From: a virus | Length of the DNA: 64,000 bases | IMG/VR virus record: IMGVR_UViG_3300008116_000027 | Coordinates: 12,886 to 76,885 of that record | Reading direction: 5' to 3' (one strand) | Shown: positions 11,765-27,987 of the stretch, one piece after another | Layout: the number at the start of each line of letters is the position of its first letter | Position numbering within the stretch: the stretch's first letter is position 1 | Made by a program: the position numbers and the translations under genes | The notes under the pieces: model-generated | The model's database searches: none | Seen by the model: only the letters and a program-made list of their open reading frames with translations | Told to the model about the DNA's origin: nothing

Positions 11765-13186
11765 ATGGCAACAGTAAATAAGAACTTTAGAATCAAACAT
11801 GGTCTGGTGGTTGAGGGATCAACCGCTACCGTAAATGGCCAAAATGTATTAACCGAAACAGGTGGAGATGCCTATATTCTCAACCTCGTTGGCGGGGCAA
11901 CACTTGTAAAATCTGTATCCTCTGACTTTGCAGTAGACGGAGCAGGAAATCTTACAATCAACGGATCTTCAGATCTTGCAAGAACTGGAGATATTACCAC
12001 AGCAGTTAATGCACTAGACACTGATGATATTGAAGAAGGTGCAAGTAATCTTTATCATACCGCACAACGTGCAAAAGATGCAGCAGCAGAACTTTTAACA
12101 AATGCATCAACAACAAATATTACAATTACAGGAACAGGTGCTGGATTAACAATTACTGCCGAAAACGGCGTAGCTGATTCAGACACTGATGATCTTACTG
12201 AAGGCACAACAAATCTATACTTCACCAATCAACGTGCATTAGATGCAACAGCATCAGCATACGATATATCAGGTTCTGCTTCAGCAGCACAAACTGCAGC
12301 AGAAAATTATGCAGACAGTTTAGCAGGAAACTATGATCCAGCAGGCGCTGCTTTAACAGCAGAAACTAATGCTAATATATATACAGATAGTGAAATCAAT
12401 GGCTTAGTTACAGATGACATTGAAGAGGGTGTAAGTAATCTTTACTTTACAAATACTCGTGCTCGTGGAGCAATTTCTGCAGGAACTGGAATCAGTTACG
12501 ATAGCGGAACTGGTGTAGTATCTGTAGACAATACAATTGCAACAGAGTCTTACGTCAATACAGCAATTAGTAACCTTGTTGACGGAGCTCCTGATCTTTT
12601 AAATACTCTTAATGAAATTGCAGCAGCAATCAATGATGACGCAAACTACTTTACAACAATTGCTAATCAGATTGCAGGAAAGCAAGATACATTAACAGCA
12701 TCTACAGGAATTACAATTGATGGTTCAAATAACATTTCGGTAACAGCCAATACATATGATGCATATGGAGCAGCTTCAGCGGCCCAAACAGCAGCAGAGG
12801 CTACAGCTCAGGCAGCACTGGATGATGTTCTTGATGCCACAACACCATTCTCAGACATCAATATAAATGATTTTGCAAAGCAGGTAGCTGCTAGATCTAC
12901 ATCACTTGGTTCAGTTGTAGTAACTGCTTATCAGTTCAATAAATCAACATTTAAATCAGGTAAGTTCTTGGTTAAGATTGACAACGGAACACATAATGAA
13001 ATCTCAGAAATTCTAGTAACACTAGATTCATCTGACAACGTAGCAATTACAGAATATGCAATCGTCGGAACAAATGGTTCAAGAGGAACAATTACAGCAG
13101 ATGTAGATGGAACTCATTGCCGAATCAGAGTAAATCCAGTAAATGATTCAACTATTACTGTAGCTGGTACAATCTTTAACGCATAA
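11765..13186 (+). CDS. fibre protein
   Basis: Three TDD(I/L)xEGxxNLY(H/F)T repeats; [19 protein letters not shown] motif. Confidence 0.7.
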   Translation: MATVNKNFRIKHGLVVEGSTATVNGQNVLTETGGDAYILNLVGGATLVKSVSSDFAVDGAGNLTINGSSDLARTGDITTAVNALDTDDIEEGASNLYHTAQRAKDAAAELLTNASTTNITITGTGAGLTITAENGVADSDTDDLTEGTTNLYFTNQRALDATASAYDISGSASAAQTAAENYADSLAGNYDPAGAALTAETNANIYTDSEINGLVTDDIEEGVSNLYFTNTRARGAISAGTGISYDSGTGVVSVDNTIATESYVNTAISNLVDGAPDLLNTLNEIAAAINDDANYFTTIANQIAGKQDTLTASTGITIDGSNNISVTANTYDAYGAASAAQTAAEATAQAALDDVLDATTPFSDININDFAKQVAARSTSLGSVVVTAYQFNKSTFKSGKFLVKIDNGTHNEISEILVTLDSSDNVAITEYAIVGTNGSRGTITADVDGTHCRIRVNPVNDSTITVAGTIFNA

Positions 13187-13252
13187 TTAAATAAAAGGCT
13201 AGGGGAGAGCCTTAATCTCCCCACAAAAAACAATTAGGGGATAGTGAACTTA

Positions 13253-13600
13253 ATGGCAACAACAGATAAAAACTTTAAAGTTAAAAATGGACTCAATGTC
13301 GCAGGAAACGCTACATTTGATTCTAGCGTTATATTGGGATCAACCCCCCTAAGATTTGATACGGCAACAAATAAACTACAGATCCAATTAAATGGAACAT
13401 GGAAGCCTATTGCATTTACCGAAGACCTGGAAAGCCAAATTGGCTTTACAGATATCGGACTAGCAATAGATTACAATGGTCTTCCAATATACACAGTTCA
13501 GGCAAATGGAGTAAGCACCACAGCAACTAAGTTCGCTGACGGTGGAACCCCAGAAACCTCAACATATGGTATGACATTTGATTCTGGGGCTTTAGTTTAA
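13253..13600 (+). CDS. virion structural protein
   Basis: N-terminus MATTDKNFKVKNGL matches MATVNKNFRIKHGL of the preceding gene, which supports this start. Confidence 0.6.
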   Translation: MATTDKNFKVKNGLNVAGNATFDSSVILGSTPLRFDTATNKLQIQLNGTWKPIAFTEDLESQIGFTDIGLAIDYNGLPIYTVQANGVSTTATKFADGGTPETSTYGMTFDSGALV

Positions 13601-13640
13601 ATAAAATAATGCTATACTTAGCAAATAAGGGGAAATAAAT

Positions 13641-16115
13641 ATGTCAACAGTAAGAATTCAAGTAAGACGAGGTACTGCATCAGAATGGACCTCAGTAAAT
13701 CCTACACTAGCTGCAGGAGAACTAGGTGTTGAAACAGACACTAGAAAAATTAAAATTGGAACTGGAAGCACTGCTTGGACTAGCCTTTCTTACATAGCAG
13801 CAGACTCACCAGCAATTACAGAAATTGCACAAGACGCAATTGATCAAGCTCTTTCTATGGGCTCAGGTCTTACAAAGTCTTATAACGATAACACAAATAC
13901 AATTTCCCTTGGCATCGACGACTCAATTGTCGCACTTAAATCTTATGTTGACAGCCAGGTAGGTGGGTTACAAAATACAGTAACTTCAGACTATGTATTA
14001 TTAGCAGATGTTGGAAATGCAGGTGGACCTGCAAAATTAGATGCTGACGGAAACTTGCTTGTTCCAAAATCAAGCATTATTATAGAAGGATCATCAGCAG
14101 ATGCTCATGAAACCACACTAACAGTATCAAATCCAACATCAGATAGAACAATCACACTTCCAGACTCATCTGGTACAGTAGCACTAACATCAGACCTTGC
14201 ACCATATGCAACAACACAAGCATTAAATTCCGTAGTATCTTCATTGAATATTCATCAAGCAGTAAATGTTGCAACAACAGAACCGTTAGTAGCAACTTAT
14301 GCTGCTGGTTCCGCTGATAACGGCAATGGAACTGGAATTGGTGCAACATTAACAATGAACTCAAATGGCACTCTAACAATAGATGGCTTACAAGCAGAAA
14401 ATGGATTTAGAATATTAGTAAAAGATCAAGCAAACTTAGTTCATAATGGTATTTATGAAGTAACAATTGCAGGATCAGCTGGAGCACCAGCCGTTTTAAC
14501 TAGATCTGCAGACTACAATAACTCAGATGTAAACACACCTCTTGATGTTGCTAAAGGCGATGTCGTTTTTGTAACAGATGGAACAGAAAATGGATATAAA
14601 CAATTTTCTCAAATATACGCAGGAACTAACGCAGACGGCTCAGTAAAAATTGGATCTGAAAATATTGACTTTACTCAAATTTCAGGAGCAGCAACAATTA
14701 TAGCTGGAAATGGTATAACTAAATCAGGAAACACAATTAGTGTTGATGCTCAAGAATTTTTAGCAACATCTACCGCATCAAGTACATATTTAACTCAAGC
14801 AGATGCAGCAAATGACTATTTGTCACAAACAGATGCTGGGGCTACTTATTTAACTCAAGCAGATGCAGCTTTAACATATTTAAATCAAACAGACGCAAGT
14901 ACGACATACCTGTCACAAGCAGATGCAGGTACAACATACTTGTCTCAAGCAGATGCTGCAACAGATTATTTTGCTGTTACAACAGATCAAATTGAAAATG
15001 CCAATATTAAAATTGGCGCAGGAATTGCAGCAGATAAAATATCAGGAAACGCTGTAACACAAGCAGATACAGGAACTGTAACCAATACAATGCTTGCAGG
15101 ATCCATTGATAATAACAAATTATCAAACTCTACAATTTCAGGCATATCGCTTGGATCTAATTTAGAAACATTAACAATTGGAACTGGTTTAAGTGGTACA
15201 TCTTACAACGGTGGATCAGCAGTAACAATTGCAATTGATTCAACAGTTGCTACAGAGTCTTACGCAGACACCGCAGCATCAAATGCTCAAGGAGCAGCAG
15301 AAGATTACGCTGACGGACTTGCAGCAAATTACGAAGTTGCAGGAGCTGTTTCAACACACTCATCTGATACAACAAACGTACACGGAATTACAGATACAGC
15401 CCAAATTGCTCTTCTAGATGCTGCTACACAGCAATTTACAGGAGACATGGGAATTACTGGAGACTTAATTGTTGACGGTGACGTAACTGTTAATGGCGGA
15501 AGCTTTACAGCAAGCGCTACATCTATAACAATTGAAGATAATCTAGTTCAGCTTGCTCATCAAAACGCAGCAAATACCGTAGACTTAGGTCTTGTTGTAG
15601 CGTACAATGACGGCGCAGCAAAACACTCTGGTATAGTAAGAGATGTTTCTGCTAATAAATGGAAACTATTTAAAGGCGTAACAACAGAGCCTGCTACAAC
15701 AGTAGACTTTACAGAAGGATCACTTGATGACCTTGAGTTAAATGAAATTAAAACAGCTGGAGTAGTATTCTCAGACGGCACACAGACCAAAGAGGGTGTT
15801 CCTTCAAGAACTCCAATTATTTCAAAGACTGCAGACTATACATTGTCTGCGCTAACCGAGAGAGATTCATTAATTGAAGTTGACTCTTCTTCAGCAGTAA
15901 CAATTACAATTCCAACCAACTCAGCAGTTGCTTATCCAATTGGAACAACTCTAGATATTCTTGGAGTTAACACAGGACTAATCACAATCGCAGGAGATAC
16001 TGGTGTAACAGTAAATGCTACCCCAGGATTAAAGTTACGTACACAATGGTCATCCGCAACATTACTCAAGAGAGCAGAAAATTCTTGGGTAGTTTACGGC
16101 GACTTGAAATCATAA
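13641..16115 (+). CDS. long fibre protein with Mtd-N-like N-terminal domain
   Basis: RIQVRRGTASEWTSVNPTLAAGELGVETDT; 10-aa repeats; C-terminal domain shared with 24099-25202. Confidence 0.8.
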   Translation: MSTVRIQVRRGTASEWTSVNPTLAAGELGVETDTRKIKIGTGSTAWTSLSYIAADSPAITEIAQDAIDQALSMGSGLTKSYNDNTNTISLGIDDSIVALKSYVDSQVGGLQNTVTSDYVLLADVGNAGGPAKLDADGNLLVPKSSIIIEGSSADAHETTLTVSNPTSDRTITLPDSSGTVALTSDLAPYATTQALNSVVSSLNIHQAVNVATTEPLVATYAAGSADNGNGTGIGATLTMNSNGTLTIDGLQAENGFRILVKDQANLVHNGIYEVTIAGSAGAPAVLTRSADYNNSDVNTPLDVAKGDVVFVTDGTENGYKQFSQIYAGTNADGSVKIGSENIDFTQISGAATIIAGNGITKSGNTISVDAQEFLATSTASSTYLTQADAANDYLSQTDAGATYLTQADAALTYLNQTDASTTYLSQADAGTTYLSQADAATDYFAVTTDQIENANIKIGAGIAADKISGNAVTQADTGTVTNTMLAGSIDNNKLSNSTISGISLGSNLETLTIGTGLSGTSYNGGSAVTIAIDSTVATESYADTAASNAQGAAEDYADGLAANYEVAGAVSTHSSDTTNVHGITDTAQIALLDAATQQFTGDMGITGDLIVDGDVTVNGGSFTASATSITIEDNLVQLAHQNAANTVDLGLVVAYNDGAAKHSGIVRDVSANKWKLFKGVTTEPATTVDFTEGSLDDLELNEIKTAGVVFSDGTQTKEGVPSRTPIISKTADYTLSALTERDSLIEVDSSSAVTITIPTNSAVAYPIGTTLDILGVNTGLITIAGDTGVTVNATPGLKLRTQWSSATLLKRAENSWVVYGDLKS
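14787..14966 (+). repeat. six 30-nt coding repeats, YL(T/S/N)Q(A/T)DAxx(T/D)
   Basis: Visible in both translation and DNA. Confidence 0.85.
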
Positions 16116-16127
16116 GGAGAATTATAA

Positions 16128-17465
16128 ATGAGTAAGAGATCTGGTAGAAAATCCCAAGCAGCAAATGACTTTTTAGAGCCAAAACCTGTAGAAAATTTAG
16201 TAGCTACAGATGTAGGAACTTCTAGAGCATACAATGACGGAGCAGTAAATCTATCATGGGAGTTACCTGCAGGATCACCTCCAGCAACCTCTTACTCAAT
16301 TACAACAACCCCAGCATCAACAACACAAACTACATCTAATACCTCTTTTACATTTACTGGGCTATCATCAGATACAGCCTATACATTTTCAATAACTGGA
16401 AGCAATGCTGCAGGAACTTCTGCTGCTACAACTTCTAGTTCTGTAACAGCAACTACGGTTCCTCAATCTCCACAATCAGTTTCAGCAGCTTCTCCAAACG
16501 CAAACGAAGATGTTGTTTCATGGTCAGCAGGTGCTTCTGGTGGTAAAACAATTACTAGTTATACCGTAATATCTTCAGATGGACCATCATACACAAATTC
16601 AACTTCACCAAAAACTATTTCAGAAACAGCTGGAACTTCACAATCTTATACAGTTTATGCAATTAACGATAATGGAACATCAGTAGGAGCAACTACTGGT
16701 TCTGTTACTACAACAGCACCGTTCTTCCCACCGTTCTTCCCATATTTCCCACCGTTCTTCCCATATTTCCCACCGTTCTTCCCATTCTTCCCGTTCTTCC
16801 CACCATATTTCCCACCATTCTTCCCATTCTTCCCGTTCTTCCCACCATATTTCCCACCGTTCTTCCCATATTTCCCACCGTTCTTCCCATTCTTCCCGTT
16901 CTTCCCACCGTTCTTCCCACCGTTCTTTCCACCAAGATTCGGTCCATATTTCCCAGCGTGTGTTGACGGAGATACTTTAATCTTAACTAGCGAAGGTCCA
17001 AAACCTGCTAGAGAGATAAAAGTAGGAGATAAACTACTAACAGTTGATGCTTTAGGGTTAGCCGATCAACCTAACAAAACACCTCTTGAAATTAATGTTC
17101 AAGATTTGATGATAAGTAACATGGTACACACAGAAGTTACAAATGTTATAGTCTCAGACAAACAGGACAGAGTTTACTTCAATGGAAACAAAGAAGTTCA
17201 GTTTACAGAAACTCATCCAATATTCGTAAAACGAAATAACGAATATCGTGTAGTCGAAGCAGGACTAGTACAACAAGGAGATGTTTTAATAAATATCTCA
17301 GTAGATAACTTATCTGAAACTTTAGATATGACCAAGGTAATATCAGAAGTTGAAGTGTCTAAGGTAGATAAAATAACTTTAGATTTAGCAAAAGATGTGT
17401 ACACATTTAGCTGCGATCCACATAATTGGTACTTCGCAGGAGATATATTAACACACAATAAGTAA
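16128..17465 (+). CDS. FN3 x2 / Pro-Phe-Tyr repeat / C-terminal Hint-domain protein
   Basis: FN3 motifs (NLSW, TGLSSDTAYTFSI; VSW...YTVYAIN); ~79-aa P/F/Y tract; Hint domain starts at Cys (nt 16959), has TETH block B and ends THNK-stop. Confidence 0.85.
   Translation: MSKRSGRKSQAANDFLEPKPVENLVATDVGTSRAYNDGAVNLSWELPAGSPPATSYSITTTPASTTQTTSNTSFTFTGLSSDTAYTFSITGSNAAGTSAATTSSSVTATTVPQSPQSVSAASPNANEDVVSWSAGASGGKTITSYTVISSDGPSYTNSTSPKTISETAGTSQSYTVYAINDNGTSVGATTGSVTTTAPFFPPFFPYFPPFFPYFPPFFPFFPFFPPYFPPFFPFFPFFPPYFPPFFPYFPPFFPFFPFFPPFFPPFFPPRFGPYFPACVDGDTLILTSEGPKPAREIKVGDKLLTVDALGLADQPNKTPLEINVQDLMISNMVHTEVTNVIVSDKQDRVYFNGNKEVQFTETHPIFVKRNNEYRVVEAGLVQQGDVLINISVDNLSETLDMTKVISEVEVSKVDKITLDLAKDVYTFSCDPHNWYFAGDILTHNK
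16719..16955 (+). repeat. low-complexity coding repeat of PPFF/PFF/PYF units
   Basis: Imperfect tandem 9-12-nt units such as ccaccgttcttc and ccatatttc. Confidence 0.9.
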
Positions 17466-17478
17466 AATAATAATCACC

Positions 17479-17502
17479 TAAAGCCCCCAAACGGGGGCTT
17501 TA
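17479..17502 (+). terminator. intrinsic terminator-like hairpin
   Basis: TAAAGCCCCC-AAAC-GGGGGCTTTA. Confidence 0.7.
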
Positions 17503-17508
17503 GTATTC

Positions 17509-17537
17509 TTGACAGTTAATTATATATTATATATAAT
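17509..17537 (+). promoter_or_regulatory. consensus sigma70 promoter of the oxygenase cluster
   Basis: TTGACA 17509-17514, 17 nt, TATAAT 17532-17537. Confidence 0.8.
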
Positions 17538-17561
17538 GTATACATAGTAGAAAGATAAAAT

Positions 17562-18281
17562 ATGCAAGATATTTATGATATAAACGATAATCCATGGTTT
17601 ACAAAAGATAGATCAGAATCAACTTCTTTTAGGGTAAATAGATCTTTTGGTAATATTAAAGTTTTAAATCCAGGTATTGGATTAAATATTTATGAATCAG
17701 CTATTCCAAGCAGTGTTTGCGAAACATCAATTAAAACATTAGAAGATAAGCTAACAAATGGCAACATGTATAAATGGTCAGAAGCACAAGTTACGACCTC
17801 AGACAAACCAGTAAAATCTGCAAGAGATTGCGTAGATTTTAAATTTAAACCAGAAAATCTTGGAAAAAGAAATGAAAATAATGCAGAACTTCTAGATATG
17901 CATGAATCCATTTATAATGTATTAAAAAAATGCGTAGATGATTATTGTCAATATTGGGGAATTAATGTTGTATATTATGAAGCTTTTAATTTTGTGAAAT
18001 ACACCAGCCCAGGACAACATTTTAGAGTTCATGCTGATCATGGTCCACACTATAATTGTACAGTTTCAGCTGTAATATATTTAAATGATGATTACGAGGG
18101 CGGGGAGATAGCATTTCCAAGATTAGATAAATTAGTATATAAACCAAAACGTGGTGACGTAGTAATTTTTCCATCAAACTATATATACGAACATTCTTCA
18201 GAACCAATGATTTCTGGAGATAAATACTCTGTTGTAATTATGATGGATATTAACCTATTAGGACATAAGGAGAACAATTAA
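17562..18281 (+). CDS. 2OG-Fe(II) oxygenase, prolyl-4-hydroxylase-like
   Basis: VHAD, YLNDDYEGGE, FPSNYIYEH, GDKYS. Confidence 0.9.
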   Translation: MQDIYDINDNPWFTKDRSESTSFRVNRSFGNIKVLNPGIGLNIYESAIPSSVCETSIKTLEDKLTNGNMYKWSEAQVTTSDKPVKSARDCVDFKFKPENLGKRNENNAELLDMHESIYNVLKKCVDDYCQYWGINVVYYEAFNFVKYTSPGQHFRVHADHGPHYNCTVSAVIYLNDDYEGGEIAFPRLDKLVYKPKRGDVVIFPSNYIYEHSSEPMISGDKYSVVIMMDINLLGHKENN

Positions 18282-18937
18282 TGAATAAACAAACTTGGTC
18301 AAGCGCAGAAGACTTAGGATCAGGAATTTGGGTATATAGAGATGTTTTAACAAAAGATTTAGATATTATTAATAGGCTAGAAACAAATTTAGATGGAAGC
18401 ACTCCAGGTTGGACTTGGCAGCCAGCTTATGTTGGATATCAAGAAAGAATGCCAGAATATAGAGACTGCGTAGACTTTAAATTTAAAAAATCAGATATAG
18501 CAAATGATAAGTCTCCTATATCATTAAAAATGCAAGAATTGTGGCAAGACTGCTATGATAGGCAAGCACCAGCAGTAGAAGATTATTGTCAAAAACATAA
18601 TATACATAAACTTCAATATTGGGAAGCTTTTAATTTTATTAAATATGTTCCTGGACATCACTTCATGGAGCACCATGATCATGGATTTTCATATAATTGC
18701 ACTGTATCTTTAGTTGGCTATATTAACGATGATTACGAGGGCGGAGAATTATATTTCAGATTACAAAATTTAAATATTAAACCAAAAGCTGGAGATTTAT
18801 ATATTTTCCCTTCAACATATATGTATCCTCATCAAGCAAAAGTAGTTAAGTCTGGAACAAAATATTCATTAGTTACAATGTTAGATTATAGCGCAAAATT
18901 TCATACTCCAGCAATGTACGAAGATACTGGTAATTAG
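18281..18937 (+). CDS. 2OG-Fe(II) oxygenase, prolyl-4-hydroxylase-like
   Basis: EHHD, YINDDYEGGE, FPSTYMYPH, GTKYS. Confidence 0.9.
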   Translation: MNKQTWSSAEDLGSGIWVYRDVLTKDLDIINRLETNLDGSTPGWTWQPAYVGYQERMPEYRDCVDFKFKKSDIANDKSPISLKMQELWQDCYDRQAPAVEDYCQKHNIHKLQYWEAFNFIKYVPGHHFMEHHDHGFSYNCTVSLVGYINDDYEGGELYFRLQNLNIKPKAGDLYIFPSTYMYPHQAKVVKSGTKYSLVTMLDYSAKFHTPAMYEDTGN

Positions 18938-19656
18938 TGTCTATATTAAAGGCATATAAAAGACATCCAAATTCTTTTATAATTGAACCTATTTCAGTAA
19001 AAAGACAATGGATGGACGAAACTCCAGACGGTCATGCGTATAGGTGTTTTCCAGTAACAATGGCAAATACAATAGGTTGGACATTATCGTGTCCAGTGGA
19101 CGTATCATTTATATGGGATGGGCAAATAGACACAACGCCAGATAGAGTTAAAATTTTATCTGGTCAAGAATATTGTTACACTGGAAGAGGCCAAGGTTCA
19201 GTAAGTTTTAATACAGGTCTTATTCTAAAATCAGAAAAACATATAAGTGTATTAAGTATTACTCCACAAAATTATTTTTATGAAGATTTTGAAGTAATGT
19301 CATCATTAATAAGTACATCTTTTTTTAATGTTGATTTTCCATTAGCAATTAAAGTTAAAATTCCAAATAAAGAAATTATTATAAAAGCTGGCACTCCCAT
19401 TGCTACAATTATTCCGATTTCTCTTACATCATTAAAAGATGAATCTATAGAAATAGAAAATTTTATAAAGCCAGAAGATTATGATGCTAAATTAAAAAGT
19501 TATGGAGATGCTGCTCAAGTAATAAATCAATCTGGACAGTGGACAGATTGGTATAGAGATGCTATTGATGAAACTGGCACATCTATTGGAGAGCATGAAA
19601 CTAAAGCTTTAAAATTAAAAGTAATAGATAATACAACAAAGGAAAATAACAATTAA
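18937..19656 (+). CDS. conserved hypothetical protein (DUF6065-like)
   Basis: RQWMD...AYRCFPVTMANTIGW and GTPIATIIP motifs. Confidence 0.65.
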   Translation: MSILKAYKRHPNSFIIEPISVKRQWMDETPDGHAYRCFPVTMANTIGWTLSCPVDVSFIWDGQIDTTPDRVKILSGQEYCYTGRGQGSVSFNTGLILKSEKHISVLSITPQNYFYEDFEVMSSLISTSFFNVDFPLAIKVKIPNKEIIIKAGTPIATIIPISLTSLKDESIEIENFIKPEDYDAKLKSYGDAAQVINQSGQWTDWYRDAIDETGTSIGEHETKALKLKVIDNTTKENNN

Positions 19657-20377
19657 TATAATTAAATTTGTATCAAATAGGCCTTGGTTAAATAAAGAAA
19701 GTATTTCTAAGCCAACAGCAGCCATAAAAGAAATACCAGAATGGTTTAGAAAGGCAGATAGATTTGCAGTTAATCCAATTACTAAAGATTATTGGAAAGG
19801 GCCAGACGGAGGCAAAGTTCCTACATGGAAGGCTTGCCCAGCTATATTTGATATATTAGGCACTGGCTATGTTCTTAAAACACCATGCGACATTAAATTT
19901 TATTTAAAAAATAATAAAATGTCTGTTGAAATAAAAGAAGATAGGTATAAAGATTTTTGTTCTCAAAGAGACCCTATGCCACAATTTGTTCATCCAAAAG
20001 GTTACCATAAAGAACATTTTGCATGGTACCCAGACTGGGCAATTGAGTTGCCAGAAGGATACAGTGCTTTATACACAACCCCATTTAATAGGTTTGATTT
20101 ACCATTTTTAATGACTACTGGAATTGTAGATAATGATAAAATTAATTTACCAGGAACAATGCCATTTTTTATAATTAGAGGATTTGAAGGAGTGCTACCA
20201 GCAGGAACTCCATATGCTCAAATAATTCCATTTAAAAGAGAAGATTGGTCATCAGAAATATTTATAGAAAATCCAAATAATTTATACAAAAAGAATCAAA
20301 AAAATAGTGATAAATATAGAGTAAAAGATGGTGGAGTCTATAAAAATGAAGTTTGGTCTAAAAGAACATATGAATAG
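19652..20377 (+). CDS. conserved hypothetical protein related to the preceding gene; probable non-canonical ATT start
   Basis: Frame is open 89 codons upstream of ATG19919 and encodes IPEWFRK...TWKACP...GYVLKTPCD; C-terminal GTPYAQIIPFKREDW. Confidence 0.7.
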   Translation: MNIIKFVSNRPWLNKESISKPTAAIKEIPEWFRKADRFAVNPITKDYWKGPDGGKVPTWKACPAIFDILGTGYVLKTPCDIKFYLKNNKMSVEIKEDRYKDFCSQRDPMPQFVHPKGYHKEHFAWYPDWAIELPEGYSALYTTPFNRFDLPFLMTTGIVDNDKINLPGTMPFFIIRGFEGVLPAGTPYAQIIPFKREDWSSEIFIENPNNLYKKNQKNSDKYRVKDGGVYKNEVWSKRTYE

Positions 20378-20394
20378 AATGATATAATAAATAT

Positions 20395-21066
20395 ATGGAC
20401 AATAATTTAGCAAATGGTGCAGCAAATTGGGATAACCGTGTTTCAATAACACCACCTGGATTTTTTGGCAACAGTCCAGAGCATATTCAGGCAAGAGAAA
20501 ATTTTATGACTGAAGAAGAGAGATTATTCTTATTAGAATCAGCTAAATCAATTAATGAGTGGGATAGAACCGAAACTCATTATAATGATGACGGAATTGT
20601 AATTTATGACTCTTCTTATTGGGATAACCGTGTTGCATCAAGACCAATTCTTGATAAAATAAATCCAGAGATATCTGTTGTAATTGAAAAACTTGTTGAA
20701 AGATTAAAAGTTGAAGTTGATAATCATTTTAATGTTGATGCTAAACCTACAAGTCCAGCAATTGTTAGATGGATGAAAGGATATAGACAAGAGCCACATG
20801 CAGACAAACAGTTGCAAAATGGAGAGCCAAATGATTTTCCTTGGTATGATCTTGCTGGATTATTTTATTTAAATGATGACTACGAAGGCGGAGAACTTTA
20901 TTTTATGCATCATGATGTACAATTTAAACCAAAACCTGGAGCAGCATATTTCTTCCCAGGAGATGTAGGATACAGTCACGGAGTAAAAGAAATAACAAAT
21001 GGAATTAGATATGTTATTCCATTTTTTTGGACAATTTTAAAACATACTGGTGATAAGCAGCCATGA
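20395..21066 (+). CDS. 2OG-Fe(II) oxygenase, prolyl-4-hydroxylase-like
   Basis: PHAD, YLNDDYEGGE, YSHGV, GIRY. Confidence 0.9.
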   Translation: MDNNLANGAANWDNRVSITPPGFFGNSPEHIQARENFMTEEERLFLLESAKSINEWDRTETHYNDDGIVIYDSSYWDNRVASRPILDKINPEISVVIEKLVERLKVEVDNHFNVDAKPTSPAIVRWMKGYRQEPHADKQLQNGEPNDFPWYDLAGLFYLNDDYEGGELYFMHHDVQFKPKPGAAYFFPGDVGYSHGVKEITNGIRYVIPFFWTILKHTGDKQP

Positions 21067-21857
21067 CAGTAGATTACACAGAAATATATCCTAAAATATA
21101 TGTATACCACAATTCAATAAAAGATCCTAATTTTTTTTTAAAGCAGTCTTTAAATCAATATAAAATTGGTTGGAAGGATTGGTCATTTTTTGGAAGATAT
21201 ATAGGAATTGGCGGGAAAACAGCTAAATATAAAAAATTTCCAACCTGGGAAGAATTTAAAGAGTCTATAGATTTACAAGAAAATCAACAACTAAGTTTAG
21301 AGTATATTGATAAGTTTTATCACAACACTAAACATTATATAGATAATAATTTAATTACTTTAAACGAATGGGCATACGAGTCTTCCTCTTTATGTGAATA
21401 TGATATAGCAAAAGGACATGACGGAGAATTCTCTATGGCCTATCACTCAGACTTTATTGTGCCAGAAAAAAATTGGCCAGGATTAAAATTTGAAATATCA
21501 GTAACAACTTATCTTAATGATGATTACGATGACGGTGAGTTGTGTTTTGCTATAGATAACGATTTATTTTCTTATAAACCTAAAGCTGGAGATATGATTA
21601 TTTTTCCATCAAGACCACCATATTTTCATGGAGTAAGAAAACATAAAAATAAAAATAGATATATGATTAGAGGATTTTGGCTATCTTCTTACGAAGGAAG
21701 TCTTGAATGGCATGAGGGATTGCTTAAATACGGTAAAGAAGAGTGGGAAAAAATGCAAAGAATCGAACTAGAAAAATATACCATAGAAAATATACCTTCT
21801 CCATCAGAATACGCATCTTCTTATTCTAGAGATAATGAAAGATTAAATATAAAATGA
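21063..21857 (+). CDS. 2OG-Fe(II) oxygenase
   Basis: YHSD, YLNDDYDDGE, YFHGV, NRY. Confidence 0.88.
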   Translation: MTVDYTEIYPKIYVYHNSIKDPNFFLKQSLNQYKIGWKDWSFFGRYIGIGGKTAKYKKFPTWEEFKESIDLQENQQLSLEYIDKFYHNTKHYIDNNLITLNEWAYESSSLCEYDIAKGHDGEFSMAYHSDFIVPEKNWPGLKFEISVTTYLNDDYDDGELCFAIDNDLFSYKPKAGDMIIFPSRPPYFHGVRKHKNKNRYMIRGFWLSSYEGSLEWHEGLLKYGKEEWEKMQRIELEKYTIENIPSPSEYASSYSRDNERLNIK

Positions 21858-22663
21858 AAAATTTAGAATTTATAACAATATATCCTGGAGTAAACGTATA
21901 CAGAAATGTTTTTCAGGATGTAAATGATTTTTTAGAAAAAGCAAAAAAATGTGAAAAATGGGAGCAATGGTATACATTTGGATCAATGCTTGCTCTTCAA
22001 GAAATGCCAATTAAATTTGATTCATTTCCAAATAAAGATGAGTATATGACATCAAGAAAATGGGACGACGGTACAGAAAATTCAAAAATAAGAGGACAGC
22101 TAGCAGAAGAAGTAGCAGAAATATTTTATGATGTAACAAGTCATTATATAAAAATGCATCCAGAGCATTCATTACAAAATTGGATAAAAAACCCCGCTTC
22201 TGTTAATAGATACAATGATGGATCAAGTATATCTGATAACTATTCAATGAACTACCATACAGACTATAATCAAGAAATTGAAGATTCAAGTGGTATTAAA
22301 TTTGGAATTACTACAACATTTTATTTAAATGATGACTATAAAGATGGAGAAATTTGTTTTAAAATTAATGATCATTTTATTTCTCATAAACCACAAAAGG
22401 GAGACGTAATAGTATTTCCATCTAAGCCACCATACTATCATGCAGTTAGAAAATCTAGTGGAACAGATAGATATATGATTAGATCATTTTGGCAATTTGA
22501 GTATGAAGGATCAAAAGAATGGCTAGAAAATCAAGAAAAATACGGCAAAGATGTTTGGGCGTCTATGGAAGAAAAAAGAATTAGCAAAGAAAGATTTATG
22601 TATCAAATTGAAGGAGAGTCTATGCATAAATTTTTTGGAAAAGATAATGGAATTAAACTATGA
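21854..22663 (+). CDS. 2OG-Fe(II) oxygenase
   Basis: YHTD, YLNDDYKDGE, YYHAV, DRY; paralog of the preceding gene. Confidence 0.88.
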   Translation: MKNLEFITIYPGVNVYRNVFQDVNDFLEKAKKCEKWEQWYTFGSMLALQEMPIKFDSFPNKDEYMTSRKWDDGTENSKIRGQLAEEVAEIFYDVTSHYIKMHPEHSLQNWIKNPASVNRYNDGSSISDNYSMNYHTDYNQEIEDSSGIKFGITTTFYLNDDYKDGEICFKINDHFISHKPQKGDVIVFPSKPPYYHAVRKSSGTDRYMIRSFWQFEYEGSKEWLENQEKYGKDVWASMEEKRISKERFMYQIEGESMHKFFGKDNGIKL

Positions 22664-23502
22664 GACAATGTACTTGTGGAAGATCTAATGCGTATCCATA
22701 TTGTGATGGAACTCATAAAAAGAAAAAGGAGCCAATAATGAAAGACGGCATGATAGATGTTTTAGATAAAAGTAAATTTATTGTTTTGCAAGACGAAGAA
22801 GTTCCAGAAAATAAAGCTGGTGTACTTGGAGTCTATACCAATAAAATTGTAGAAATACCCAACTTTATTGACCCAGCAATAGTTCCCAAGATGATTCATT
22901 TTTTTGAAAATTGTAATGTTGAGTGGGGAGATATTGCGTTTTACGGATCTTCTGGAAAAGGTATTTTAACTGACTCTGAAACAATGAAAAAATTTGGATT
23001 GCCAGATGAATTTTTTGATAAGTTAAAAAATAAATATCAGGAAACAGTAGAACTGGTATTCGGCAGAGAAGTTAGAGCAAATACTTCTCATGCACAAAAA
23101 TGGGATGTTGGAGGATTTGCAAGCCCGCATTCAGATAATTCAGATAATGAAGGAAAACCTAATGCTTTTGAAATAAATAAGTATGTTGGAATTTTATACT
23201 TAAACGATGACTATGAGGGTGGGGAATTATATTTTTGCGATAAAGATAATGAGATGAATCCATATCTATCATTTAAACCAAATGTATATTCTTATTATGT
23301 ATTTCCTGGAGGGTATGAAAATATTCACGGAGTATCAGAAATTACTAAAGGAACAAGATACACTATGGTATCATTTTGGGATTTTGCAGATTTAGTATAT
23401 GACGATGCTACTTTAGAAAAATGGAAAGAAGAAGAAAAGCAAGTTAGAATTGAACAGGCTGCACAAAAAGAAGAATGGCTAAAAGGAAATAAATATGCCT
23501 AA
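22660..23502 (+). CDS. CDGSH [2Fe-2S] motif fused to a 2OG-Fe(II) oxygenase
   Basis: N-terminal CTCGRSNAYPYCDGTH; PHSD, YLNDDYEGGE, IHGV, GTRY. Confidence 0.85.
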   Translation: MRQCTCGRSNAYPYCDGTHKKKKEPIMKDGMIDVLDKSKFIVLQDEEVPENKAGVLGVYTNKIVEIPNFIDPAIVPKMIHFFENCNVEWGDIAFYGSSGKGILTDSETMKKFGLPDEFFDKLKNKYQETVELVFGREVRANTSHAQKWDVGGFASPHSDNSDNEGKPNAFEINKYVGILYLNDDYEGGELYFCDKDNEMNPYLSFKPNVYSYYVFPGGYENIHGVSEITKGTRYTMVSFWDFADLVYDDATLEKWKEEEKQVRIEQAAQKEEWLKGNKYA

Positions 23503-24091
23503 TGTTCAAAGATTTGAAAAAATATCATATTATAAAAACGTTATAGACGATCCTAAATCACTAATCAATTTAATAGAGGAGTCAGATAAAAATTTAACGT
23601 CAGATACTAGTATCCCAAGTTGGCAAGAATGGAATGCTAGCGGAGATAGTCCTTATCAATTTGGTTATCAAAAAAGATTTAACAATAATGTTGAAGCTGA
23701 TACTTCTCTAGAAATTAAAAAAATAAATATGACATTAAAAAATGCTATTGTAGATGCATCTAATGATTATTCAAAAGAATATGGTATAAATATAGGAACA
23801 TTAATGCCTTTATCTATAAGTAAGTATTCCACTGGAAAATCTATGGGCCCTCATGTAGACGATTATAATAATGGAGATGACCCAAACATATCAGTAGTTT
23901 TATATTTAAATGATAATTATGACGGTGGTGAGATTAATTTCCCAAATCAAAACATAACAATAAAACCAGAAGCAGGAAGCATTGTGATATTCCCATCTGT
24001 AGAGCCATATTACCACGAATCCCTACCAGTTATTTCTGGTATTAAATATATGTCTCCTGGATTTTGGCGTAAAGTAGACAAGGTGGTATAA
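23495..24091 (+). CDS. 2OG-Fe(II) oxygenase, prolyl-4-hydroxylase-like
   Basis: PHVD, YLNDNYDGGE, YYHES, GIKY. Confidence 0.9.
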   Translation: MPNVQRFEKISYYKNVIDDPKSLINLIEESDKNLTSDTSIPSWQEWNASGDSPYQFGYQKRFNNNVEADTSLEIKKINMTLKNAIVDASNDYSKEYGINIGTLMPLSISKYSTGKSMGPHVDDYNNGDDPNISVVLYLNDNYDGGEINFPNQNITIKPEAGSIVIFPSVEPYYHESLPVISGIKYMSPGFWRKVDKVV

Positions 24092-24098
24092 TTTAAAA

Positions 24099-25202
24099 AT
24101 GGCCACTATTCCAAATGATAAAAACTGGAGATTCCCAGACTACACAGATTCACCAGATATACCAAGAGATATTTCTTATTTAGCTGCAGATATTTCAGAG
24201 TATATAGATTCTCACCCAGGTCCACAAGGTGAGCAGGGGGATACTGGACCAGCAGGACCAGCAAACGTTTTATCAGTCGGAACAGTAACAACTGGACCAG
24301 CAGAGTCTTCAGCCTCAGTTACAATTACTGGTACATCACCAGAGCAAACAATCAATTTTACAATTCCTCGTGGCGATACTGGAGCAACTGGTGCAACTGG
24401 CGCACAAGGTATTCAGGGAATACAGGGCATACAAGGAGAACAAGGAATTCAAGGTATACAAGGAGAAAAGGGCGACAAGGGCGATACTGGTGCAACTGGC
24501 GCAACAGGACCTCAAGGTATACAAGGCGAAAAAGGTGATGATGGTGACCAGGGCATACAAGGAGAACAAGGAACTGGCGTTAATATATTAGGTTCTTATG
24601 CTAATCTTACAGCACTACAGACAGCACATCCAACTGGAAGCTCTGGAGATGCATATTTAATAGATAATGATTTATATGTTTGGTCTCAATCAACATCTTC
24701 ATGGATAAACGTTGGAACAATAAGAGGCCCACAAGGTATTCAAGGAGAGCATGGCATACAGGGTCCAAAAGGCGATAAGGGAGATACTGGCGATACTGGA
24801 GCAACTGGTGCACAAGGACCGCAAGGCCCACAAGGCGAACCAGGATTAACAGGAGCAGACGGAGCAGACGGAGCAGACGGAGCAGACGGTCAAGACCTTA
24901 CATCAGTATTTACAATATCACAAAAATCTACATCTTACACATTAGTGGCATCAGATCTTGGAAAATTAATAGAAATGTCAAATGGCGGAGATCTAATTAT
25001 ACCAACAGATTCAGAAATATTTGATATCGGATCTACTATAGATATAATTCAAACTGGATCATCGCAAGTAACAATAGGCGGAGATACTGGTGTAACAGTA
25101 AACTCAACCCCAGGATTAAAATTAAGAGCACAGTGGTCATCTGCAACATTAATTAAAAGAGGAAATAATCTTTGGGTTGCTGTAGGCGATTTGAGCGTCT
25201 AA
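24099..25202 (+). CDS. collagen-like fibre protein
   Basis: Three Gly-X-Y tracts; C-terminal domain ending LRAQWSSATLIKRGNNLWVAVGDL is shared with 13641-16115. Confidence 0.85.
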   Translation: MATIPNDKNWRFPDYTDSPDIPRDISYLAADISEYIDSHPGPQGEQGDTGPAGPANVLSVGTVTTGPAESSASVTITGTSPEQTINFTIPRGDTGATGATGAQGIQGIQGIQGEQGIQGIQGEKGDKGDTGATGATGPQGIQGEKGDDGDQGIQGEQGTGVNILGSYANLTALQTAHPTGSSGDAYLIDNDLYVWSQSTSSWINVGTIRGPQGIQGEHGIQGPKGDKGDTGDTGATGAQGPQGPQGEPGLTGADGADGADGADGQDLTSVFTISQKSTSYTLVASDLGKLIEMSNGGDLIIPTDSEIFDIGSTIDIIQTGSSQVTIGGDTGVTVNSTPGLKLRAQWSSATLIKRGNNLWVAVGDLSV

Positions 25203-25203
25203 A

Positions 25204-26118
25204 ATGCCAAAAAGAAATCGTGGTAGATCTGGTACAAGAAAAACAAATGTTCCAAATTATTTAGGACAAACTTCTACCGACACGCAAACATCTTTAACAA
25301 ATCTTGGATTTGTTTATATATATAATACAACCGATACTACAACAGAGTCTGATAATTTAAAAATATATTCACAAAGTATTTCTTCTGGTCAATTATATAC
25401 TTTGGGATCACAAGTTTCAGTTGAATATTATGTGTATGTTGCGCCGTTCTTCCCACCGTTCTTTCCATTTTTCCCACCCTATTTCCCACCGTTCTTTCCA
25501 TTTTTCCCACCCTATTTCCCACCGTTCTTTCCATTTTTCCCACCCTATTTCCCACCGTTCTTTCCATTTTTCCCACCAAGATTTGCCCCAGTGGGTCCTT
25601 ATTTCCCAGCATGCCTAGATGAAAACACTTTAGTGTTAACTAACGAAGGAATGAAGCCAGCTAAAGATATTAAGGTCGGGGATACATTATTAACAGTTGA
25701 TGCATTAGGATTGTCTAATCAACCAAATGCAACCCCACTTGAAATTAATGTTAAAAATCTTAATATAACAAACTTAAGATCTACACAGGTTACAAATGTA
25801 ATTGTTTCTGATAAAACAGATAGAGTCTATTTTAATGAAAATACAGAAATTCAATTTACTGAAACTCACCCAATATTCGTAAAACGAAATAATGAATATC
25901 GTGTAGTAGAAGCGGGATCAGTTCAAGAGGGAGATATCATTATAATTATAAATATAAGTCTCTTAAAAGAACAAATAAATATATCAGAAGTAATAACTGA
26001 AACTGTAATAAATAAAGTTGAAAAGAAAACTTTAGATGTTGCAAAAAATGTATATACGTTTAGCTGTGATCCATATAATTGGTATTTTGCTGGAAATATA
26101 TTAACTCACAATAAGTAG
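25204..26118 (+). CDS. PASTA / Pro-Phe-Tyr repeat / C-terminal Hint-domain protein
   Basis: VPNYLG...L..LGF...IYSQS..SG PASTA-like pattern; repeat tract; Hint domain from Cys (nt 25612) with TETH, ending THNK-stop. Confidence 0.85.
   Translation: MPKRNRGRSGTRKTNVPNYLGQTSTDTQTSLTNLGFVYIYNTTDTTTESDNLKIYSQSISSGQLYTLGSQVSVEYYVYVAPFFPPFFPFFPPYFPPFFPFFPPYFPPFFPFFPPYFPPFFPFFPPRFAPVGPYFPACLDENTLVLTNEGMKPAKDIKVGDTLLTVDALGLSNQPNATPLEINVKNLNITNLRSTQVTNVIVSDKTDRVYFNENTEIQFTETHPIFVKRNNEYRVVEAGSVQEGDIIIIINISLLKEQINISEVITETVINKVEKKTLDVAKNVYTFSCDPYNWYFAGNILTHNK
25453..25584 (+). repeat. 33-nt tandem repeat (PPFFPFFPPYF) x3 plus one variant copy
   Basis: ccaccgttctttccatttttcccaccctatttc occurs three times; the fourth copy ends PPRF. 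Confidence 0.9.
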
Positions 26119-26136
26119 ATTGGAGGTTGTCAATAA

Positions 26137-27987
26137 ATGTCATATAAACTTAAAATATTAAAAGACCATCCTATTGGATTTTGGCAACTTGATGATGTGG
26201 CTACAAATCCTACTTTTGACTTTACTGATATTTTAGAAAAATATGATACCTATCAAGATTTATTAGATGCATATGAAGACTATGCAAATATAAACTATTT
26301 TGCAGAAGATAGTTCTGGATGCTCTAATACTGGACTGTATGTCGGAACTTTTGATACTAATAAAAAATATTTTCCTTTATCTCCAGGAGGAAGATATTCT
26401 ATAGATATAACATCATCTAAAAGTATAGATTTCCCAATAATTAATAGTTACTATAAAAATAATGCACCTGGCGGTTTTGCTACAAGAGATTATGGAGATA
26501 ATGATTTTACACTAGAATGCTGGATCTACCCAGAAATAACCACTAATTCTTTAACAACAATATTTGCCGATAGTAGTAAAAATGTTGGCATATTTTACCA
26601 AAATGGAAATATCATTTTTAAATTAGATCAAGAACTTTTAGAATATACATTACCAATTATAAATAAATCAATGCATATAGTTGCAGTATATTTAGTAACA
26701 GAAGCTCATTTATATATAGATGGCAAACTATCCATTAGTAAAACAATATCTTCTAATCCATTTACCAATACTGAAATTTTATTAACCTCTGGGCCCACAT
26801 CAAATTTAAACGATAAATTTTTAATAGACGATATAGCAGTATATAGATATGGTCTATCTAATATAAAAATATTAGATCATTATTATAATGATAGCTATAC
26901 AAATCCATCTCAAATAATACAAGTAGACAATGGAGAAATTTTTGAATTTTACGATACAGATATAAGTAAAGTTTTTTCTTATTCATATCCTTTAAATAGG
27001 CCCTGGCAAGAAGTCGTGACAGAAGATTTATATTATGACCAAACAAATCAATATATACAAATTAAAAAAAGTGGCGTACAAGAGTCTAAGTCTATTGTAA
27101 TAGAAGATACAATATACTTACCAGCAGCAACTTCTATAAATTCTTCAAAAATAGATTGGTTTGGAGATAATGGAATTACTGTTGAAACTAGTATTAATGG
27201 AGAAGATTATGAATTGTGTATCAACGGACAGTCTATACCACAATACACCTCATTAAATTTTAACAATAGTAGAGTTTTAAATATAAAAATAACAATAGGC
27301 TCAACGGACATTTCTAAATATTTACCAAAATTATATAATTTAAATATTAGTTTTTATAATAATCAAATTATGTATTCAAAAAATGGAACAAGCTATTTGT
27401 CAAAAATTGAAAATAAAGACTATTATTTAGGAGAAAATAAATACCCAATTTTATCTAGGGATCCAAGAAATGGAATATTGTGTCCAAGTAACTCTGGATT
27501 TAATATTAATTTATTTCAATTAAAACAATCAATAGAATTTTTTTATACACCATATAGTTTAAATAAAGGTCTACTAATTAGCTCAATTATAGATGAAGAC
27601 GGGGCAGCCAGCGAATATTCATGGAATACAGATGGATCAATTAATCAAACTAACATAGAGTCTATTTATGTCAATGGTATAGATGTTTCTCTAGAAGATG
27701 ACATATCTAATATATTTACATTAAACGATATACATCACGTTGTGATTAATTTTACAGACCCTATATATGGGCTAGCAACAATCAACTACAAGTCATCTGG
27801 TTCAACAAAAGCCCTATATCAATATATGTCATTTTACCAGAATTCATTAAGTTATAATACTATAATTAATCATTATCGTTTATATACCTCTAGAGACCTA
27901 TATCAAACAAGTTATTCTTCCATGTTTATGTCAGAAAACTCAGTTAATCTATATAATAATGACTGGATTGTGGTACAAAACTCATAA
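26137..27987 (+). CDS. virion protein with concanavalin A/LamG-like domain
   Basis: DHPIGFWQLD, FTLECWI, HIVAVY, LYIDG, IDDIAVY..L. Confidence 0.7.
   Translation: MSYKLKILKDHPIGFWQLDDVATNPTFDFTDILEKYDTYQDLLDAYEDYANINYFAEDSSGCSNTGLYVGTFDTNKKYFPLSPGGRYSIDITSSKSIDFPIINSYYKNNAPGGFATRDYGDNDFTLECWIYPEITTNSLTTIFADSSKNVGIFYQNGNIIFKLDQELLEYTLPIINKSMHIVAVYLVTEAHLYIDGKLSISKTISSNPFTNTEILLTSGPTSNLNDKFLIDDIAVYRYGLSNIKILDHYYNDSYTNPSQIIQVDNGEIFEFYDTDISKVFSYSYPLNRPWQEVVTEDLYYDQTNQYIQIKKSGVQESKSIVIEDTIYLPAATSINSSKIDWFGDNGITVETSINGEDYELCINGQSIPQYTSLNFNNSRVLNIKITIGSTDISKYLPKLYNLNISFYNNQIMYSKNGTSYLSKIENKDYYLGENKYPILSRDPRNGILCPSNSGFNINLFQLKQSIEFFYTPYSLNKGLLISSIIDEDGAASEYSWNTDGSINQTNIESIYVNGIDVSLEDDISNIFTLNDIHHVVINFTDPIYGLATINYKSSGSTKALYQYMSFYQNSLSYNTIINHYRLYTSRDLYQTSYSSMFMSENSVNLYNNDWIVVQNS

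Follow-up and report, generated by a model that had tools for sequence, protein, structure and literature searches.

Phage tail-fibre-associated proteins ending in a Hint domain, a probable type A BIL-like self-removing cap

Hint domains underlie protein splicing, the lipidation of Hedgehog proteins and a set of widely used protein-ligation tools. Their N- and C-termini meet at the active site, where an N-S acyl shift at the first residue, Cys1, produces a thioester; the His of block B is normally important for this shift, and canonical splicing requires in addition a Cys, Ser or Thr at position +1. In Hedgehog the Hint domain forms its thioester at Cys1 and departs from the N-terminal product, to which it can join a nucleophile that is not a protein. 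Among phage proteins, the Peptidase S74 C-terminal chaperone domains of fibres and tailspikes remove themselves after assembly. In the type A BIL domains, which have the His-Asn pair and no +1 nucleophile, cleavage predominates, and aminolysis that follows cyclisation of the Asn can also join the flanks (PMC4031507). Another BIL domain, BIL2, transfers its N-extein to the epsilon-amine of a Lys, so that an isopeptide bond results (PMC8616854).

The DNA analysed here (the window, 64,000 nucleotides) comes from an IMG/VR viral contig of 76.9 kb. The structural genes of this phage are of siphovirus type, among them those for a portal, a protease, a major capsid protein and a tape measure of 2127 aa. 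Two genes of the window, here called A and B, end in a Hint domain that follows a tract of Pro, Phe and Tyr:

16128..17465, plus strand: gene A, 445 aa (ORF list and translation)
16719..16958, plus strand: Pro/Phe/Tyr tract of gene A, 80 residues, ending GPYFPA (composition)
16959..17462, plus strand: Hint domain A, 168 aa, with Cys1 at 16959-16961, TETH at 17205-17216, His-Asn at 17454-17459 and Lys at 17460-17462
25204..26118, plus strand: gene B, 304 aa (ORF list and translation)
25444-25611, plus strand: Pro/Phe/Tyr tract of gene B, 56 residues, ending GPYFPA (translation)
25612..26115, plus strand: Hint domain B, 168 aa, ending THNK and followed by the stop TAG at 26116-26118 (translation)

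The product of gene A is composed, in this order, of a basic N-terminus, two FN3 domains (Pfam fn3, E 5e-13), the tract and the terminal Hint domain; that of gene B has a basic N-terminus, a weak PASTA-like region (E 1.7e-5; poorly modelled, with AlphaFold2 pLDDT of about 40-60), the tract and again the Hint domain at its end. Within the 80 residues of the gene A tract there are 34 P, 37 F and 6 Y, encoded by irregular tandem repeats of 21, 42 and 63 nt, and the gene B tract contains an exact 33-nt tandem repeat at 25450-25577. The two Hint domains are 70% identical, equal in length and alike in their motifs; in Hint A the TETH occupies Hint residues 83-86 and the stop codon TAA lies at 17463-17465. 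Our preferred reading, to which we assign a probability of roughly 0.6, is that this domain is a type A BIL-like autoprocessing cap ending a tail-fibre-associated protein: Cys1 would form a thioester, and the Hint domain would then leave the repeat tail.

An earlier note on this DNA had described both domains as 168 codons long with Cys1, a TETH block B and a terminal His-Asn, and the translation reproduces these positions and residues exactly. It holds for both copies, as the note had also said, that +1 is a Lys followed by a stop, with no Cys, Ser or Thr nucleophile; canonical class 1 splicing is therefore excluded for Hint A and Hint B. A homing endonuclease is absent, again in agreement with the note, as 168 residues leave no room for one. 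On the 3' side of gene A lie a strong intrinsic terminator with an 11-bp stem (17478-17503, plus strand) and, beyond it, a sigma-70-type promoter matching the consensus at 12/12 positions (17509-17537, plus strand), which starts the oxygenase operon discussed below; on the 3' side of gene B there is a GGAGG and then, at 26137, the ATG of the next gene. The terminator in the one case and the next gene's start in the other rule out a C-extein reached by read-through. To this extent the claim that there is no C-extein stands, but its wording is too strong: the single Lys could itself be transferred, given that type A BIL domains ligate their flanks without a +1 nucleophile (PMC4031507).

The Hint fold had been proposed as something that HMM searches or structure prediction could overturn, and both profile search and an AlphaFold2 model uphold it. 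Single-sequence Pfam or NCBIfam matches of the Hint proteins in the window all fall below the curated thresholds: Intein_splicing (E 3e-7, 30.7 bits where 35.8 is required), Hint (13-18 bits against 29.7), intein_Nterm (19.3 against 24.5), PT-HINT (E 0.0098, 16.6 bits against 27.7) and Hint_2. These low Pfam and NCBIfam scores are offset by the family profile and the fold search. A profile built from 22 family members and run against the PDB retrieved the KlbA intein first (E 9e-10) and the Clostridium thermocellum (Cth) BIL second (E 4e-8). The AlphaFold2 model of gene B has a pLDDT above 90 over residues 137-304, and the top Foldseek matches are the Tetrahymena BIL2, the C. thermocellum BIL, mini-inteins and Hedgehog, with probability 1.00 and, for BIL2, an E of 5e-9. 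Superposition with VIA-align, extending from Cys1 through the terminal Asn, gave Z values of 16-17.7 and rmsd values of 2.0-2.3 A overall: Z 17.7 and 2.0 A over 138 residues for BIL2, and Z of about 16.7 for the Cth BIL (16.7 against Hint B, with 2.1 A and 25% identity), Hedgehog 1AT0 and the RecA mini-intein. According to these models the terminal domains are complete horseshoe-shaped all-beta Hint folds, with similarity far above chance; the Z values are tied within 1, so the fold alone cannot separate BIL, intein and Hedgehog.

Relatives of the domain are numerous. When 1.84 billion cluster representatives were searched exhaustively with HMMER, 130 were found at E <=1e-3, and in most of these the match to the query domain stops no more than a few residues short of the C-terminus of the protein. 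In most of the 75 full-length representatives examined, the 60 residues before Cys1 form an aromatic/Pro repeat (PFFPPFF, GFTPFGF, FFAPPGF or poly-Pro), and the N-terminal domains of family members are variable and often FN3. Judging from these sequences, most members appear to be built alike, with a variable surface domain first, then an aromatic/proline repeat and finally a terminal Hint domain. The nearest ESM Atlas clusters and the top BFVD matches are proteins of uncultured Caudovirales without assigned function, and the names that relatives carry in the databases are either 'hypothetical protein' or evident mis-annotations. Protein matches among isolate phages are limited to distant jumbo-phage Hint domains; a Megablast of positions 13000-27000 against isolate phages found nothing beyond one match of 39 nt. 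A scan of bacterial and archaeal genome contigs with P0001 found no copy and so gave no clue to a prophage or host, and single-protein scans with P0023 and P0016 matched no viral contigs. The literature that we searched on Hint, BIL and intein-like domains in connection with phage, tail fibres or autoprocessing does not describe this family, which is large and purely viral and whose Hint domains are small and terminal.

The hexapeptide GPYFPA, which the earlier note had thought important because both paralogs share it, is indeed identical in the two window copies, but it is not a general requirement, since close relatives have GPFFPA, GPYFTR or GPYFVR and position -1 is occupied, across the family, by F, G, K, A, S, P, R or others. 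Cys1, in turn, is invariant in 61/61 diverse aligned members. Block B reads [ST]xx[HQE] family-wide, with TETH in the window and the Ser/Thr invariant; at the His position of the motif the 61 members have H (20), Q (32) or E (9), that is, Gln or Glu in about two thirds, and the chemistry may accordingly differ, or be slow, in many of them. A reader might take this replacement, together with purifying selection that acts over the whole domain and beyond its catalytic blocks, for the mark of a non-catalytic Hint domain retained as a structural or binding tip. We consider this highly improbable in view of the unbroken Cys1, the invariant Ser/Thr of block B and the strictly kept His-Asn-Lys, and of the window copies, which keep the block B His and with it the full canonical set of Cys1, TxxH and HN. 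The dN/dS values are 0.08-0.40 for Hint domains as a whole and 0.08-0.20 for Hint A against its orthologues, and all catalytic blocks are invariant across 14 close-clade copies. We also considered, and rejected, assignment to the class 3 inteins, which the Cys in block F of the phage domain (FSCDP) had suggested: the residue there is C, T, V or A family-wide, and Cys1 is invariant.

The most distinctive feature of the family is found at its very end. The Hint domain ends in His-Asn in 83/130 representatives, and all 83 have a Lys at +1 (54), +2 (26) or +3 (3); at the overall Lys frequency of 4.2% in these proteins, chance alone would put a Lys at one of these three positions in ~12%. Ser or Thr at +1 occurs in only two of the 83, both with Lys at +2. 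To judge from the aligned tails, the Lys after His-Asn is a family-wide signature, and it is new here. On a tree obtained by a quick maximum-likelihood search, changes among the forms HNK-stop, HNxK and HNK-plus-tail number at least five, and well-supported branches require no fewer than two or three of them: the position of the Lys shifts several times, and in the His-Asn tail forms the Lys is never lost. The clade to which the window belongs has HNK-stop in 36/36 copies, with stop and flanks conserved, while the codons vary synonymously (CAC/CAT, AAA/AAG, TAA/TAG); constancy despite varying codons indicates that selection acts on the protein.

These copies bear as well on whether the domains might be conventional or split inteins whose C-extein is encoded elsewhere or was lost by mis-assembly. 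The intein-like motifs are the only feature that such an origin would account for. The domain is complete, with both halves; in 36 copies the stop is conserved along with its flanks; a terminator or the start of the next gene follows directly; and among the 130 representatives a terminal domain is the rule. The probability left for this explanation is next to negligible, and we reject read-through or a split intein on the evidence of the terminator, the next gene's start and the 36 conserved HNK-stop copies.

One clade of 15 representatives (SH-aLRT 99) has lost His-Asn and ends in I/V-S/A. It keeps Cys1, which suggests that the N-terminal reaction is the function common to the whole family. 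In 14/15 of its members a Lys is found at -1 to -6 of Cys1, in the motif F-K-x-x-K directly before the Cys, compared with only 5/41 aligned His-Asn members having a Lys within six residues upstream; the contrast rests on a single clade and is counted as one event. Its members include a 401-aa protein of locus L042 that is homologous to gene A over its whole length, with FKGK directly before Cys1 and VIA as its final residues. Since the two ends of a Hint domain converge on the active site, either of them could supply a Lys next to the reactive bond.

Cleavage or ligation by way of a Cys1 thioester would fit the established chemistry of Hedgehog and of the BIL domains, and from the residues and their positions we infer the following course. 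After folding, Cys1 would attack the peptide bond before it, which is Ala277-Cys278 in gene A and Ala136-Cys137 in gene B, and the end of the Pro/Phe/Tyr tract would become a thioester; in gene A the tract would thus be the N-extein end and carry the thioester. The branched intermediate of canonical splicing could not form, as neither a Cys, Ser or Thr at +1 nor a C-extein domain is present, and the thioester would be resolved directly with departure of the ~19-kDa Hint domain. For gene A (48.6 kDa in full length) the predicted products are an N-fragment of 29.8 kDa and a Hint fragment of 18.8 kDa; for gene B (34.7 kDa) the N-fragment would be 15.8 kDa, and over both genes the Hint fragments would be 18.8-18.9 kDa. 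The mature protein left behind would consist of the basic N-terminus, the FN3 or PASTA-like domain and the Pro/Phe tail. The Lys next to His-Asn would sit at the active site, where the Hint ends meet, and this conserved residue probably participates, either as a helper in hydrolysis or as an acyl-accepting amine. Plain hydrolysis assisted by the Lys would be the simplest option for resolving the thioester. The His-Asn, though, is strictly kept in members that have it while N-terminal cleavage alone does not need it, which suggests that simple hydrolysis may not be the whole story.

The same retention of His-Asn is what isopeptide splicing would lead one to expect. Here the epsilon-amine of the terminal Lys would attack the Cys1 thioester and cyclisation of the Asn would then free the Hint domain, so that the Pro/Phe tail would carry a Lys cap in isopeptide linkage; members of the clade lacking His-Asn would instead use their upstream Lys to close a C-terminal lactam. 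The presence of Lys at +1 to +3 in all 83 His-Asn-ending members agrees with this scheme, as does its presence at -1 to -6 in 14/15 members of the other clade, and transfer of the Lys or short tail to the carboxyl end of the tail would explain the strict retention of both His-Asn and Lys better than plain hydrolysis does. There is precedent in BIL2, the best-scoring structure (tied with others), which makes isopeptide bonds to the Lys epsilon-amine (PMC8616854), and in the type A BILs, whose ligation by aminolysis involves no nucleophilic side chain (PMC4031507). We still think it unlikely, because the complementary placement of the Lys amounts to one evolutionary event in a single clade and because the Lys could equally be catalytic or charge-balancing. 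The wider proposal that the invariant Lys is an acyl acceptor by either route, making the domain a Lys-directed ligase that needs neither ATP nor a +1 side-chain nucleophile and that either caps the tail or welds it to a fibre lysine, is possible but doubtful, with a little more in its favour.

The surroundings of the two genes place the self-removing cap, as we would have it, among fibre genes and a series of oxygenases:

13641..16115, plus strand: fibre A, 824 aa, with an Mtd_N-type N-terminus, directly upstream of gene A
17562..24091, plus strand: operon with seven genes for P4H-type 2OG-Fe(II) oxygenases, a DUF6065 gene and an unknown gene of 152 aa
24099..25202, plus strand: fibre B, 367 aa, collagen-like (Pfam Collagen, E 1e-21), directly upstream of gene B

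Alignment revealed a C-terminal domain of ~95 aa common to fibre A and fibre B, for which we found no sequence relative in the PDB and no Pfam or NCBIfam match. There was likewise no S74 match in the Hint or fibre genes of the window. The operon, with Pfam matches to 2OG-FeII_Oxy_3 (E 2e-13 to 5e-9) and to DUF6065 (E 2e-30), sits between the two fibre/Hint pairs, and in 34 close-clade loci the order is fibre A, Hint gene, oxygenase operon, fibre B, Hint gene, LamG protein, portal. Much more distant loci, namely L037, whose Hint domain is only 30% identical, and L042-L046, which belong to the lineage without His-Asn, also have, in this order, a fibre, a repeat-Hint gene and 2OG-Fe(II) oxygenases, and the fibres before their Hint genes carry the same ~95-aa C-terminal domain; DUF6065 was found in L042-L046 and not detected in L037. 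The gene order fibre, repeat-Hint gene, 2OG-oxygenases therefore recurs in three divergent phage lineages. The neighbouring P4H-like oxygenases would most likely modify the Pro-rich tail and not the Hint domain. Iyer et al. (2010), who treated phage dioxygenase arrays, do not mention Hint domains, inteins or tail fibres.

This arrangement invites the thought, raised already in the earlier note, that the thioester is attacked from outside: a Lys amine or hydroxylated residue of the upstream fibre, another virion protein or an amine of the host surface would then become covalently linked to the Pro/Phe tail. Hint genes directly follow a fibre gene with the same ~95-aa C-terminal domain in three lineages, hydroxylase genes always adjoin, and a hydroxyl nucleophile is what Hedgehog uses. 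Conjugation of an N-extein to lysines of other proteins is on record for BIL2 (PMC8616854). The earlier note had also thought of a lipid or an amine as the partner, or of cyclisation of the tract, each of which would be conjecture. Adjacency, however, is to be expected of any fibre accessory protein, one Hint gene of L042 (730 aa) has no such fibre before it, and the conserved Lys can be explained without a partner, so that ligation to a partner seems to us distinctly improbable.

If the self-removing cap is no more than self-hydrolysing, it would still be a new case of a C-terminal cap that removes itself from phage fibres, analogous in role to the S74 chaperone domains and unrelated to them in fold. 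Should the Lys accept the acyl group, these would be compact, 168-residue natural isopeptide ligases or C-terminal capping modules of biotechnological interest; with the adjacent hydroxylases, a Lys acceptor would also point to an undescribed pathway for the chemical maturation of a virion appendage. For abundant uncultured phages the Hint domain appears to mark a conserved fibre-maturation module, made up of fibre, Pro/Phe-repeat protein, Hint cap and hydroxylase array, and this module would supply a concrete candidate for the substrate of the many 'orphan' 2OG oxygenases of phages.

Among the closest known systems are the type A BILs, such as that of C. thermocellum (PDB 2LWY). As far as the key residues can tell, the window domains would qualify as type A BILs, with Cys1, His-Asn, no Cys, Ser or Thr at +1 and no endonuclease. 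Type A BILs occur in variable surface or secreted proteins, a setting like the variable surface layout of the phage family. They differ in that the phage Hint domain stands at the very end of the protein, after an aromatic/Pro repeat and with a flank of a single residue, and in the family-specific signature HN-(x)0-2-Lys. The best structural match is the BUBL BIL2 of Tetrahymena thermophila (PDB 6Y75, 6TMM), at only 14% identity. Its isopeptide chemistry with Lys is what the conserved phage Lys would allow, but BIL2 lies between ubiquitin-like domains in a eukaryote, and its acceptor Lys belongs to a folded C-extein or to another protein, whereas that of the phage is a terminal residue. The Hog/Hint domain of Hedgehog (PDB 1AT0) shares the C-terminal placement, the TxxH block and a Z of 16.7; it has no terminal His-Asn and is followed by a sterol-recognition region, whereas the phage protein stops one residue after His-Asn. 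A canonical class 1 intein needs Cys, Ser or Thr at +1 and is inserted inside a conserved host protein that also has intein-free homologues, whereas the window copies and 36/36 close-clade copies have Lys-stop and most of the 130 representatives have the phage domain at their end. In the pretoxin PT-HINT proteins the Hint domain stands directly N-terminal to a toxin domain; nothing follows the phage Hint. The likeness to S74 is a functional analogy only, the fold being unrelated and a Ser-Lys dyad taking the place of the Cys thioester. Lastly, the collagen-like tail proteins of jumbo phages (Erwinia Alexandravirus gp111; Phage NCTB BN7874_136) have a near-terminal Hint domain of 26-29% identity, without a Pro/Phe tract and with tails of 7-10 residues, HN followed by TDIVAKAEKK or by AVMVAKK; the Thr at +1 in one of them would make canonical splicing of the short tail possible there.

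The two fibres encoded upstream of the Hint genes of the window are otherwise unrelated, one with an Mtd_N-type N-terminus and the other collagen-like, and they have in common a C-terminal domain of ~95 aa:

window 15820-16115: C-terminal fibre domain, first copy
window 24910-25202: C-terminal fibre domain, second copy

This domain carries the motif TPGLKLRTQWSSATL.KR..N.WV..GDL, and it found no sequence match in Pfam, NCBIfam or PDB. The same domain is present upstream of Hint genes in the related phage loci L037 and L042-L046, and it may be a docking partner of the Hint proteins. Locus L042, of a second phage lineage, encodes two orthologous repeat-Hint proteins:

L042:16038-17243: repeat-Hint protein
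L042:9001-11193: repeat-Hint protein

Their C-terminal ends read ...VIA or ...IAIA, without His-Asn, and F-K-x-x-K directly precedes Cys1, the first Hint residue; the 730-aa copy also carries three Cys-rich repeats (WxCTTSxxGxGVGNCSYT) N-terminal to its Pro/Phe tract. In the window, the tract of the downstream Hint gene (25450-25577) consists of a 33-nt unit repeated perfectly in tandem (3.9 copies at 100% match) whereas that of the upstream gene (16725-16933) is an irregular mosaic of 21-, 42- and 63-nt units, which suggests recent slippage in the former and a tract length that varies between copies.

Between the two fibre/Hint pairs lies an operon, which has a consensus promoter of its own:

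window 17562-24091: operon of seven 2OG-FeII_Oxy_3 (P4H-type) oxygenase genes, a DUF6065 gene and a 152-aa gene
window 18937-19656: DUF6065 gene, one copy
window 19919-20377: 152-aa gene

The oxygenase at 22660-23502 has an N-terminal CDGSH-type iron-sulfur motif (Pfam score slightly under threshold). Oxygenases accompany Hint genes in three lineages, in two of which DUF6065 was detected.

Among the Hint-family cluster representatives, P0032, P0035, P0037, P0046, P0066, P0069 and P0080 form a subfamily with a conserved tail of 15-20 residues past His-Asn (consensus HN-[KRHFI]-K-x-x-[FY]-[QH]-G-[PIL]-T-x-x-D). This tail is a conserved short C-extein lacking a +1 nucleophile, and the subfamily would be well suited as a test case for BIL-type (bacterial intein-like) aminolysis splicing. 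The distant relatives P0048 (1353 aa) and P0108 (784 aa) carry Hint domains in tandem arrays with very short linkers (…HNK-C/C…, …HNK-A/C…), the Lys +1 of one domain lying 1-2 residues from Cys1 of the next.

Near-terminal Hint domains also occur in collagen-like tail/virion proteins of jumbo phages:

L003:3017-4459: Erwinia phage pEa_SNUABM_1
L047:3960-5941: Phage NCTB

In Phage NCTB the following gene encodes a stand-alone Hint-like protein of 153 aa that ends in HNKVD and lacks the N-terminal Cys1. The collagen-like Hint proteins of these jumbo phages have short tails (HN/TDIVAKAEKK, HN/AVMVAKK).
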